Below, piece after piece: positions 1,525 to 4,287 of a stretch of 64,000 bases of DNA. A program made the translations under genes and the position numbers. The DNA is taken from NCBI GenBank assembly GCA_002429485.1, contig DIZX01000015.1, positions 21,363 to 85,362 of the forward strand, written 5' to 3'. The first letter of the stretch is position 1; each line of letters opens with the position of its first letter. The DNA comes from Patescibacteria group bacterium UBA6017 (lineage in GTDB: Bacteria > Patescibacteriota > Saccharimonadia > UBA4664). The notes under the pieces are model-generated. The model was not told the origin of the DNA and made no database searches. It worked only from the letters and a program-made list of their open reading frames with translations.

Positions 1525-4287
1525 TTAGCCCCTTACGGCAGCCCCAAGTTTGCGCCTCAATCGATTAATCACCGACTCTTCCAATGCAGCCGCCTCGGCC
1601 TCGGTCGGGGTCCGGTCGGGGAGTGTGAGCCTCAACCTTATCGTCAGGCTATTCATTCCCTGCGGCAATTCTTCCCCGTAATAATCACTCACAAACATCA
1701 CGTCCCAGTTTGCGGTTGCAGCCCGAATGTCTTCCCATGTCACGGCCAATGGCACCAGCATCGTCACGTCGCGCACCATTGTCGGAAAGGTACTCACCGG
1801 TACATACGCTCTCGTGATGCCGGCATTCATCAGGGGAGTCAGGTCCACCTCAAAATGCGCCACCTCTCCCTCGAATTTCATTGCCCGCACCAGCGCCGGA
1901 TGCAGTTGGCCGATTCCACCGATCTTGGTACCTGCCAGCCATATCTCACCGTACCGCCCAGGCGCATACTGAGCATCACTGGCCGGGCGAATCGTCAGTT
2001 CAACATTGAGTTCACGGGCAATAGCGTCAAGCATTCCCTTGGCCACGCGATAGCCCGCCTCAGGCTCAAGCACGGTCGCCCCGAGCCGCAATGGCTCATC
2101 GGGCTGATCACCCTTACCGCGTTTTACGAACACTCCCGATATCTCGTAAAACCGCATCGCCTTGGCATACATACGGTTTCGCTCCAGCGTCGCCATATGG
2201 CTCGGCAGCAAACTGCTACGCAGATATGCCTGCTCCGAAGACAGGGGGTTCTTGAGCTTCAAGTGATCCGCCGTATCCAACCCCAAACTTTTCAACTGAT
2301 CTGCCGACACAAACGAGTATGTCATCACCTCAAACGAACCGGCCGCCCACAAAATATCGCGCAAACGGCGGCGAACCGATCTGAGATGATCAAACTCTAT
2401 CCGGCGCGGACGCCACGAGGGGATAGTGGCCGGTATCTTGTCGTAACCAATCACGCGCACCACTTCTTCCGCCAAATCCTCAATCAATTTGAGGTCAGTA
2501 CGCCACCATGGCACCTCGGGAACACTTACGAAATCGCTCAAATCATTAGCAAACCGCCGCGCACCCAAAAATCCCGGATCTTCCGTAAATTTAGCCAGCT
2601 CGGCCTCAGCAACTTTGCCGGCGCTAGGGGAGGCGTGCACTACCTTACCATCACCCATATATATACCGACATGGCCGACTTTATGCGCCGGCTTAACTTC
2701 ATGACGCACATATGAACCGTCACCCGATCGCACGAAGTAATGATCTTGCACCACATCCTCGCGGTCGCCCTTGGTAAACAATGCGTCTCCGGGCTTCAGG
2801 TCGTCCAGCTCCACCGGACGGCCGATCTCGTACTGACCAAGCGCCGTAAAGCCGACCTGAAGGCCAATGAGCGAATATATGTAATCAACCAAATACGAGC
2901 AATCAAAGGCCGTCTCACGGTCAGTTTTGTACGAAGCTCCAAAGCGATATGGCCGACCAATAAGTTTGTGAGTTTCACCAACGATGTCAAACGTTGCCGC
3001 AGGAATTTCAAGTTTTGCCAACGCCGCTATGGTCTCTTTGTGCGAAATTCCAATGCCCAATAGCTTAGATAATTTGGCCACCGGCAGACCTATTCGAGTT
3101 ATCCAGGGCCATTCATTAAGCTGGTCGAAGGCTTCTACGAATTCACCCCCAGCCGCCTCCTCAAGGAGCTCAATAGCACGCGCCAGCCCGAGAGGGGGGA
3201 GTGTCACCGGCAGCCCACGCTCAAATCTTGCACTAGCTTCGGTGCGCAACCCGTGACGTTGAGCCATTTTTCGGATCGTCACCCCGTCAAATACGGCCGA
3301 TTCCAGTAGAATTTCGCGTGTTTCAGTCGACACTTCAGACGATTGGCCGCCCATCAGACCAGCTAGTGCGATAGGGCCGTGAGCGTCCGCAATGATCAGA
3401 TCAGCCTCAGTTAGAGTACGCTTAACTCCATCAAGCGTGACTAATCTTTCCCCTTTATGTGCGTGGCGAACATCTATAGGAAGCGTCACCTTGGCGGAGT
3501 CGAAAGCATGCAGCGGCTGACCAGTCTCCATCAAGACATAATTCGTAATATCCACCACCGAGCCGATCGTCCTCACCCCAGCGGCCCGCAACCTGGCCGA
3601 CATCCCGCGAGGGGAGTGGGTGGGCTGATTAACCTTTACCCGAGCCAAAGTATAGCGAGCCGCTGCTAATTTTTCTGCTAAAACGCCGGGCTTATCCAAA
3701 AACTTCACCGGCGGGGGAGCCAACGGTATCGATTTTGTCGAGGTCATAGCGGCCACTTCCCGCGCCAATCCTACAACACTCTGCACATCCCAACGATTCG
3801 CCGGGGTCTTGATATCTATTACCGTATCAGCCGGAAAAATCTCGCTCAAAGGGATTCCTAAGGGCGTATCATTTGACAATTCCATAATTCCGTTGTGATC
3901 TTGACCTAATTCAAGCTCAAATTCACTACAAAGCATTCCCTCACTCACCTCGCCCCGCAACTTCGCCTTCTCGATTCGATCTCCGCTGGGCAGGATAGCC
4001 CCAATCTGGGCGAGAGCCACTATCATACCCTCCCGCACGTTCGGCGCGCCGCACACAATCGCGTGCGAACCTTCCCCCGTCTGCACTTGCACCAATTTGA
4101 GTCTATCCGCTCCCGGATGCTGAACAACTTTTTTAACCAGTGCCGCCACGATCTTTTTATCAATCTCGTTTGACGACATTACTTGTTCAACTTCGATACC
4201 GGCTCGCTCCAGAGCCTCAACCACTTCACCATCCGTCAACATTGTGCGACGTAGGGCATCTTTGATCCAACCCGATGTGATCTTCAT
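1525..4287 (-). CDS. pheT: Phenylalanine--tRNA ligase beta subunit, carrying an inserted NlpC/P60 domain inside the B5 domain
   Basis: tRNA-binding domain ([17 protein letters not shown]), B3/4 and B5 ([28 protein letters not shown]), catalytic-like and C-terminal FDX-ACB regions. About 145 aa between B5 halves matches NlpC/P60 ([11 protein letters not shown] ... [16 protein letters not shown]). Immediately downstream of pheS. Confidence 0.9.
   Translation of the reverse strand: [920 protein letters not shown]

Follow-up and report, generated by a model that had tools for sequence, protein, structure and literature searches.

Why would the gene for a cytoplasmic aminoacyl-tRNA synthetase hold, inside one of its structural domains, a complete domain of the kind found in cell wall endopeptidases? 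The question is raised by pheT, the gene for the beta subunit of phenylalanyl-tRNA synthetase (PheRS), in a 64,000-nt stretch of contig DIZX01000015.1 (positions 21,363-85,362; assembly GCA_002429485.1), which we call the window and to which all coordinates refer unless another locus is named. A first-pass annotation of the window had proposed that an NlpC/P60 cysteine peptidase domain, complete with its Cys, His and third polar residue, splits an otherwise normal B5 domain in two without breaking the reading frame. Our analysis bore out this description. The gene is a single uninterrupted open reading frame (ORF) of 920 amino acids on the minus strand, and the two halves of B5 flank a foreign domain of 157 residues. 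The first-pass annotation had assigned that domain to 2533-2970 (amino acids 440-585), which does lie inside the insert, but the full insert is wider (amino acids 432-588; 2524-2994, minus strand). The features of the gene are as follows.

1525..4287, minus strand: pheT, PheRS beta subunit, 920 amino acids, with the nested NlpC/P60 domain (TIGR00472, PheT Pfam domains and AlphaFold2 (AF2) model)
2995..3102, minus strand: N-terminal half of B5, amino acids 396-431 (aligns with B5 of solved PheTs to about amino acid 425; strand-helix-helix in models)
2524..2994, minus strand: NlpC/P60 domain (MEROPS C40) in the B5 hairpin, amino acids 432-588, 157 amino acids (PF00877, PDB matches, Foldseek and model confidence)
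2899..2901, minus strand: codon of the predicted catalytic Cys463 (FDCSY; from the translation, an invariant column in the cross-architecture alignment)
2680..2772, minus strand: variable sub-insertion within NlpC/P60, amino acids 506-536 (alignment; two extra strands in the model)
2671..2673, minus strand: codon of the predicted catalytic His539 (GHVGIY; from the translation, an invariant column in the cross-architecture alignment)
2635..2637, minus strand: codon of His551, the predicted third triad residue (VVHAS; from the translation)
2437..2523, minus strand: C-terminal half of B5, amino acids 589-617 (Pfam B5 profile positions 43-67; WWR.D invariant)

The Pfam check that had been proposed for the insert gave a clear match, with PF00877 (NLPC_P60) aligning to PheT amino acids 444-529 at E 3e-13 (50.1 bits vs a gathering score of 23). 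An internal hairpin interrupts this match, the C-terminal part of which was recovered in PDB alignments; the motifs quoted in the first-pass annotation are present, with Cys463, His539 and His551 as the triad. Solved bacterial PheT chains (Staphylococcus, E. coli, Pseudomonas, Acinetobacter and Thermus) aligned to amino acids 1 to about 425 and again to 589-919, with about 12-16 residues between the two pieces in the solved chains vs about 160 in the query. The insertion site is thus the hairpin turn of B5, after the B5 strand that reads ...LEIPAA and before the next B5 strand, where a hairpin of about 15 residues has been replaced by the 157-residue domain. The GC content of the insert is 0.52 vs 0.55 for the rest of the gene, and 0.52 vs 0.58 at third codon positions.

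Searched alone against PDB sequences, the insert retrieved solved NlpC/P60 chains (8er5_A, E 1.8e-10), and within amino acids 432-588 the Pfam and NCBIfam matches belonged to the NlpC/P60 clan only, as did the fold matches. An AF2 model of full-length PheT had a mean predicted local distance difference test score (pLDDT) of 91.5, with values of 83-96 across the insert. When the B5[NlpC/P60] module (amino acids 394-620) was modelled with AF2 on its own, the mean pLDDT was 96.0 and the predicted template modelling score (pTM) was 0.91. Foldseek matched this model with probability 1.00 to more than 50 NlpC/P60 chains in the PDB, led by C. difficile Acd24020 (7cfl; TM 0.83-0.86, target-normalised) and Acd33800, the diffocin hub-hydrolase, MepS, LytE, CwlO, SagA and RipA/B. 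In the model, the sub-insertion at amino acids 506-536 (pLDDT 83-91) adds a beta-hairpin between the PGD and His strands; this sub-insertion is found in "long-form" inserts and is short or missing in other relatives. The models indicate that the B5 halves and the NlpC/P60 domain would form one rigid two-domain unit with a fixed orientation. The structure prediction suggested in the first-pass annotation therefore gave a confidently folded insert, though one packed rigidly with B5 rather than a floppy lobe.

No signal peptide or membrane segment was found in PheT (the maximal 19-residue Kyte-Doolittle value, 1.31, falls within the domain core), and because both are absent we consider the module to be cytoplasmic. 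SH3b, LysM and peptidoglycan-binding domains likewise had no Pfam match in the protein. By profile hidden Markov model, triad and predicted papain-like alpha+beta fold, the insert is a member of the NlpC/P60 family and, with no predicted export or wall-targeting features, not a secreted autolysin.

The host protein has the attributes of an ordinary synthetase subunit. Its TIGR00472 (pheT_bact equivalog) score was 597.2 bits vs a cut-off of 402.65, in two stretches either side of the insert, and Pfam placed tRNA_bind at amino acids 47-145, B3_4 at 218-380, tRNA_synthFbeta at 618-816 and FDX-ACB at 832-919. Only the C-terminal half of B5 was matched by Pfam (amino acids 591-615, profile positions 43-67 of 67), and the same scan returned no PhetRS_B1 match. 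E. coli PheT residues N254, H265, E334, T354 and A356, which we take to be those of the B3/4 editing site, correspond to N249, H260, E329, T349 and A351; these are invariant or nearly so in the alignment. The stop codon of pheS (TAG) is followed immediately by the pheT ATG (junction TTTTAGATGAAG), and no second pheT occurs in the window. The partner gene is:

4288..5316, minus strand: pheS, PheRS alpha subunit, 342 amino acids (Pfam tRNA-synt_2d, E 2.4e-95, with Phe_tRNA-synt_N)

On these sequence criteria, the window PheT is a genuine housekeeping PheRS beta subunit of a Saccharimonadia bacterium, an ultrasmall member of the candidate phyla radiation (CPR, or Patescibacteria). In overall plan it resembles the beta subunits of canonical (alpha-beta)2 PheRS (T. 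thermophilus 1pys/2iy5, E. coli 3pco and S. haemolyticus 2rhs), with which it shares the domains except B1, the editing residues and the pheS-pheT operon. The B5 hairpin of every solved PheT, however, is about 15 residues long, where the query has a 157-residue enzyme domain.

The architecture is not confined to this genome: the public PheT clusters that bear the insert number at least about 150. In an alignment of the query and its 120 best database homologues (n=121), a PF00877 insert was present at the same B5 hairpin in 72 sequences, which were 42-88% identical to the query. With the exception of two truncated entries, these proteins are 896-959 amino acids long, and those with names belong to Candidatus Saccharimonadia. 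When the insert by itself was searched exhaustively, without a profile, against 1.84 billion cluster representatives, 279 of them matched at E <= 1e-10; among the matches listed (150), 73 were PheT or PheT fragments. Two types of insert-bearing PheT emerged. The long type, of Saccharimonadia, carries the insert at about amino acids 435-600. The short type (776-876 amino acids) lacks tRNA_bind/B2; its NlpC/P60 domain, at about amino acids 340-490, occupies the same B5 hairpin. Among named sequences, the short type is represented by Candidatus Parcubacteria, Parcubacteria group and Candidatus Terrybacteria. A few PheTs of 914-934 amino acids (P0239 and P0243) combine B2 with an insert like that of the short type. 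A scan of contigs with a single-sequence query returned mostly ordinary NlpC/P60 genes matching "HVGIYMGD", the informative loci being L001, L002, L007 and L025.

Synteny ties insert-bearing and insert-less genes together. The gene order MarR-RmuC-tRNA-synt_1b-124aa-pheS-pheT-L,D-transpeptidase-...-DUF8128 is complete both in L081, which has the insert, and in L084, which does not (770 amino acids), and L082 covers its downstream part from tRNA-synt_1b onward. Therefore, the insert-bearing and insert-less pheT genes are orthologues of a single locus, and what separates them is an insertion or deletion in situ. Because such insert-less orthologues exist at the same locus, the comparison shows that the insert should be dispensable for aminoacylation.

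The first-pass annotation had also raised the possibility of a chimeric assembly. An assembly or gene-calling error that joined pheT to a separate NlpC/P60 gene, or else a non-functional PheT paralogue, would sit well with the NCBI labels "PheT-related protein" and "C40 family peptidase" on some members. Yet the same in-frame architecture, at the same site and the same pheS-pheT locus, recurs in dozens of relatives at 42-88% identity from independent samples, on many independent contigs of JGI, ENA, NCBI and Logan assemblies that reach 321 kb. The two halves of B5 adjoin the insert exactly on either side, its composition is native, without a break, and the synteny is orthologous, so we rejected an artefact; a paralogue is opposed by the pheT_bact score, the adjacent pheS and the lack of a second pheT in the window. 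The chance that either explanation applies is negligible, and we are all but certain that the nested module is real and under selection.

Literature searches on NlpC/P60 with PheRS, PheT or B5, and on PheRS in CPR bacteria, found nothing relevant. The first-pass annotation had called the architecture undescribed, and we likewise found no paper describing NlpC/P60 nested in PheRS. As far as we searched, a peptidase nested in PheRS or in any aminoacyl-tRNA synthetase has no description in the literature, although it is present in public annotation under misleading labels. Insert-bearing PheTs are filed there as "PheT", "PheT-related protein", "C40 family peptidase" or "hypothetical protein", the last three of these names being mislabels produced by automated annotation.

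Two sets of database entries call for separate comment. The PheT[NlpC/P60] fragments P0115, P0269/P0270 and P0404 have the database names Candidatus Nanoarchaeia archaeon, Candidatus Aenigmarchaeota archaeon and Actinobacteria bacterium. Where a PheT of bacterial type turns up in bins of DPANN (Diapherotrites, Parvarchaeota, Aenigmarchaeota, Nanoarchaeota and Nanohaloarchaeota) archaea, the most likely cause is CPR contamination of those metagenome-assembled genomes. P0121 (1183 amino acids), P0140, P0143, P0152 and P0162 contain 7-16 separate stretches matching the insert; these are tandem NlpC/P60-like arrays unrelated to PheT.

We surveyed the residues of 148 inserts (90 long-type and 58 short-type) and found both catalytic Cys and His in 146 of them (88/90 long-type and 58/58 short-type). 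The third triad position is more variable. It is His in 60/90 long-type inserts, Glu, Gln, Asp or Asn in 21/90 and another residue (Met, Thr, Phe or Ala) in 9/90; short-type inserts have His there in 50/58 cases and Asn in 5/58. The position is thus polar in 81/90 long-type and 56/58 short-type inserts. Across both PheT types and free-standing proteins (see below), six columns are invariant: the Tyr of PY, a Gly, the Cys, the GD pair and the His. Identity to the query ranges over 0.35-0.85 for the insert and 0.43-0.89 for the rest of PheT, and the two track each other. Against the closest relative, the Nei-Gojobori ratio of nonsynonymous to synonymous substitution rates (dN/dS) came to 0.08 in the insert vs 0.10 in the remainder of PheT, values that are approximate with dS near saturation. 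In sliding windows, the insert was in many pairs the most conserved stretch of PheT. Taken together, these sequence comparisons show purifying selection on the insert that appears equal to, or stronger than, that on the synthetase core.

The module also occurs outside PheT. About 20 clusters of proteins of 199-233 amino acids consist exactly of the B5 N-terminal half, NlpC/P60 and the B5 C-terminal half. One of these, P0174, aligns without gaps to amino acids 299-508 of PheT P0173 (50% identity), and the motifs FDCSS and DH.G.Y are retained in the free-standing proteins. The free-standing module of L086-L089 and L091 lies after a PheRS-like gene of 379-382 codons and before gyrB, which is where L085, a related locus, has pheS-pheT. 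The start of the module overlaps the stop of the PheRS-like gene (ATGA) in L088 at least. The single-chain PheRS-like gene comprises a class II Phe core and FDX-ACB (379-382 amino acids) at these positions:

L086, 4862-6001: single-chain PheRS-like gene
L088, 4856-6004: single-chain PheRS-like gene
L089, 3113-4261: single-chain PheRS-like gene
L091, 435-1580: single-chain PheRS-like gene

The single-chain protein, encoded on Parcubacteria-type contigs, lacks both the alpha subunit's N-terminal coiled coil and the B3/4 editing domain. Among solved structures it is closest to human mitochondrial PheRS (E 2e-60, vs 1e-36 for bacterial PheS), and its core plus FDX-ACB arrangement is that of human FARS2 (3cmq) and of the NCBIfam family "PheS-related mystery ligase SrmL". 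Unlike FARS2 and SrmL, it is bacterial and falls just under both NCBIfam cut-offs (SrmL, 258 vs 300; pheS_mito, 247 vs 258). According to a 2010 review, mitochondrial PheRS is the only monomeric enzyme with the class II catalytic module (PMC3275996). No full-length pheT was found beside the single-chain ligase gene, and B5[NlpC/P60] is the only PheT-derived gene at those loci. Since the free module is kept where the rest of PheT has gone from the locus, this retention is strong evidence, as read from gene content, that the module would have a function of its own.

A second gene recurs with the module. Directly 3' of the NlpC-bearing gene in L007, L025, L086/L087, L090 and L091 is a gene for a Peptidase_C39_2 protein (168-188 amino acids), with these coordinates:

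L007, 5322-5828: Peptidase_C39_2 gene
L025, ~5325-5828: Peptidase_C39_2 gene
L086, 6666-7172: Peptidase_C39_2 gene
L090, 4593-5159: Peptidase_C39_2 gene
L091, 2350-2886: Peptidase_C39_2 gene

In L007 the ORFs place this gene after a full short-type PheT, and similar match spacing suggests the same for L025. In L090 the B5[NlpC/P60]-C39_2 pair is away from any PheRS gene, and in P0225 a C39_2 domain (amino acids ~215-397) is fused to B5[NlpC/P60]. The C39_2 protein is papain-like, with weak C70/C39 resemblance; no signal peptide was found in it, and no relatives were found among solved structures or in NCBIfam. From its recurrent position and the fusion, it is likely a functional partner of B5[NlpC/P60].

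How the insertion arose and was distributed is less simple than a lineage-specific marker, one of the possibilities raised in the first-pass annotation, would imply. The insert is patchily distributed in Saccharimonadia and in the Parcubacteria-type group alike: at the same locus, orthologues that lack it are nested among others that bear it. In a neighbour-joining (NJ) tree of the non-insert columns, insert-bearing sequences occupied deep branches with insert-less clades nested among them, and the clade of the query adjoined insert-less sequences about 70% identical to it over the N-terminal half (the extent of their local alignments). Distances between inserts correlated only weakly with those between hosts (Pearson 0.39, Spearman 0.17), and in some pairs the inserts are 75-78% identical in hosts that are 42-46% identical. 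We therefore rejected a single gain and a clean clade marker. The patchiness would reflect either repeated loss or recombinational exchange, and the mismatch between insert and host may mean either that the insert is far more strongly constrained or that the B5 region has been exchanged by recombination.

In the nearest insert-less relatives, some B5 linkers have 35-52 residues vs 29 for the minimal hairpin. In these linkers the strings "GE.HK" and "DVV..H" recall parts of the insert, namely its first helix and its middle, a resemblance which suggests that the strings may be remnants of deletion. The inserts of both PheT types share a "PY.xGAS" motif and a loop before the Cys that is four residues longer, and free NlpC/P60 domains in the set lack both features, which supports a probable common origin. 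In NJ bootstraps, the inserts grouped with free-standing B5[NlpC/P60] but never as an exact clade (mean Jaccard 0.90; the 136 columns carry little signal).

The nearest known systems by fold are the NlpC/P60 DL-endopeptidases, such as C. difficile Acd24020 (7cfl), E. coli MepS/Spr, B. subtilis LytE/CwlO and M. tuberculosis RipA/RipB. They have in common with the insert the triad of a Cys on an N-terminal helix, a His on a beta strand and a further His, and the PY..G, PGD, H.G.Y.G and GARR motifs. These enzymes are, however, secreted proteins or lipoproteins with signal peptides, often with SH3b, LysM or coiled-coil domains, whereas the insert has no export signal and lies inside a cytoplasmic synthetase. 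It differs from canonical wall hydrolases also in the PY.xGAS motif, the four-residue longer pre-Cys loop, DCSY or DCSS in place of DCSG, and the extra hairpin. YkfC-type gamma-D-Glu-L-diamino-acid endopeptidases act on free stem peptides and not on the sacculus. Those of B. cereus (BCE_2878, 3h41) and Nostoc/Anabaena (2evr/2hbw) were among the fold matches of the module (ranks 30, 31 and 37), although in this search the insert was no nearer to them than to secreted autolysins. Their N-terminal SH3b-like domains recognise the free L-Ala N-terminus, whereas the partner domain of the insert is B5 of PheT.

There is precedent for domains of PheT becoming autonomous. The canavanyl-tRNA deacylase CtdA is a free-standing module with the B3/B4 fold (PMC12449066), and B2-like TapR/YtpR was seen among the NCBIfam matches of the query PheT. 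The 199-233-amino acid B5[NlpC/P60] proteins are a further derivative of this kind. CtdA and TapR/YtpR come from editing or tRNA-binding domains and act on tRNA, whereas B5[NlpC/P60] comes from B5 and carries a foreign peptidase fold.

What, then, might the module do? On balance we lean towards an autonomous cytoplasmic thiol hydrolase nested in B5 of PheT and acting on a soluble substrate, most plausibly cell-wall-type peptides. Judged by its sequence, the insert is probably a catalytically active hydrolase. Cys463, activated by His539 and oriented by His551, would attack an amide or ester bond in a soluble substrate of the cytoplasm, by way of an acyl-thioester intermediate. The substrate could be a free peptidoglycan stem peptide, a muropeptide or a gamma-glutamyl peptide of a related kind; these auxotrophic bacteria would import or turn over such peptides, and the role would then be salvage or turnover and not cleavage of the sacculus. 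PheT would be mainly a stable, constitutively expressed carrier. We favour a peptide substrate because the sequence and fold neighbours are gamma-D-Glu-diamino-acid endopeptidases and the partner is another peptidase; the more specific assignment to cell-wall-type peptides is drawn from family resemblance only and is tentative.

Several observations weigh against this reading. A generic cytoplasmic peptidase has no obvious need of PheT, yet the link to pheS/pheT persists in three architectures. The departures from wall hydrolase motifs mean that the substrate may differ, and no C39_2 homologue was found in the present window. In P0006 and P0007 (61% and 60% identical to the query PheT), the triad is replaced by Ser, Ala or Val, and Phe, and the domain is nevertheless retained, with inserts 55-56% identical to that of the query vs 61% for the remaining protein. 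Together with the approximately 10% of long-type inserts that have a non-polar or unusual third residue, these two proteins point to a non-catalytic contribution as well. The module could accordingly be a binding or scaffold surface for ligand sensing, for docking of a partner (possibly the C39_2 protein), or for stability or regulation of PheRS, its conserved Cys and His serving in binding and not in turnover. Inactive NlpC/P60 binders do exist (the RipD family in NCBIfam), and rigid packing on B5, as in the model, would suit a structural role. We nonetheless think this unlikely as a general explanation: Cys and His are among the six invariant columns and are kept in 146/148 inserts, which is typical of active enzymes, and the joint loss of three residues in one small clade looks like secondary inactivation, making P0006 and P0007 a probable natural pseudoenzyme variant. 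The inactive scaffold raised by the first-pass annotation is thus unlikely as the general case, also in view of the dN/dS of about 0.08, although one small sublineage has lost all three residues. Regulated proteolytic release, which the first-pass annotation also raised, gained no support from these analyses, none of which addressed it directly.

The persistent association with PheRS would also be compatible with a tRNA-linked hydrolase, in which the winged-helix-like fold of B5 docked on tRNA or PheRS and the thiol deacylated mis-acylated, D-aminoacyl or N-blocked aminoacyl-tRNA(Phe), or transferred the acyl group. Papain-fold thiols readily hydrolyse esters, the free-standing form keeps the B5 halves, and the PheRS-like gene whose stop its start overlaps encodes an enzyme without a B3/4 editing domain. 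B5 of bacterial PheRS makes contacts with the alpha subunit as well as with the editing domain (PMC12449066); B5 is counted among the helix-turn-helix "DNA-binding-like" folds, and B5-like DNA-binding folds occur in the N-terminal extension of eukaryotic PheRS alpha (PMC3275996). The module would then be a second quality-control site, and a trans-acting factor where an editing-less single-chain PheRS has replaced the heterotetramer. More broadly, B5[NlpC/P60] could be a PheRS-associated thiol hydrolase or acyltransferase whose substrate is acylated tRNA(Phe) or else an ester, aminoacyl or peptidyl, that PheRS produces, working in cis in Saccharimonadia and short-PheT CPR bacteria and in trans, often with C39_2, beside the single-chain PheRS of some Parcubacteria. 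We regard all of these versions as quite improbable. The insert has no sequence or fold homology to the known trans-editing families (B3/4-CtdA, AlaX, YbaK/ProX and DTD), and canonical editing residues are intact in all insert-bearing PheTs, long and short, so that there is no obvious need for a second site; for the same reason we rejected the insert as a substitute for a decayed editing site. The pair in L090 is distant from PheRS genes, the recurrent partner is another peptidase and points to peptide chemistry, and linkage to pheS may be merely historical. Less probable still is a neutral or selfish passenger that spreads or persists, like an intein, by recombination between pheT genes with no benefit to the host. 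The patchy distribution in both PheT types, the weak insert-host correlation and the similar inserts in dissimilar hosts are what such an element might leave. An intein itself was rejected, since splice motifs and a Hint domain are absent: the insert does not end in His-Asn (its edges are IPAA/TFDIV and SDFVS/VPEV), and Hint, LAGLIDADG and HNH had no Pfam match. Its low dN/dS, invariant catalytic residues, native composition and retention as a free gene at loci without full-length pheT also speak against a passenger.

Appended and inserted domains are a route by which aminoacyl-tRNA synthetases gain editing and non-translational functions, and the presence of this module in two CPR classes and as a free gene marks a real function in the largest uncultivated bacterial radiation. 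If that function is salvage of host cell wall peptides, it bears on the feeding of auxotrophic epibionts; if the module instead acts on aminoacyl-tRNA, it would represent new proofreading chemistry and a new class of quality-control or product-diverting module in aminoacyl-tRNA synthetases. A single-chain, mitochondrial-type PheRS-like enzyme in bacteria is in addition relevant to the origin of mitochondrial PheRS (FARS2).

Downstream of pheT by 52 bp lies ldt (39-1472, minus strand), which encodes an L,D-transpeptidase of 477 amino acids (PG_binding_4 and YkuD). The pheT-ldt adjacency is kept in Saccharimonadia with and without the insert (L081, L082 and L084) and is absent in L083. We rejected this neighbour as a functional clue, as ldt is also 3' of the insert-less pheT in L084 and is missing after the insert-bearing pheT in L083. 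On the other side, a hydrophobic ORF of 124 amino acids (5307-5681, minus strand), the 3' end of which overlaps the pheS start, probably encodes a multi-pass membrane protein. A 124-amino acid gene without a Pfam match is at the equivalent place in L081-L084, which makes it a conserved operon member. PheS itself contains a CxxC-x10-CxxC stretch at amino acids 253-281 (4474-4560, minus strand; CVICAGSGKLAGKVCHLCSGTG); it matches DnaJ_CXXCXGXG weakly (E 0.0066) and may be a zinc-ribbon-like insertion within the catalytic core. The only gathering-level Rfam matches in the window were a tmRNA (52753-53131, minus strand; 94.6 bits) and one tRNA (13519-13591, minus strand).

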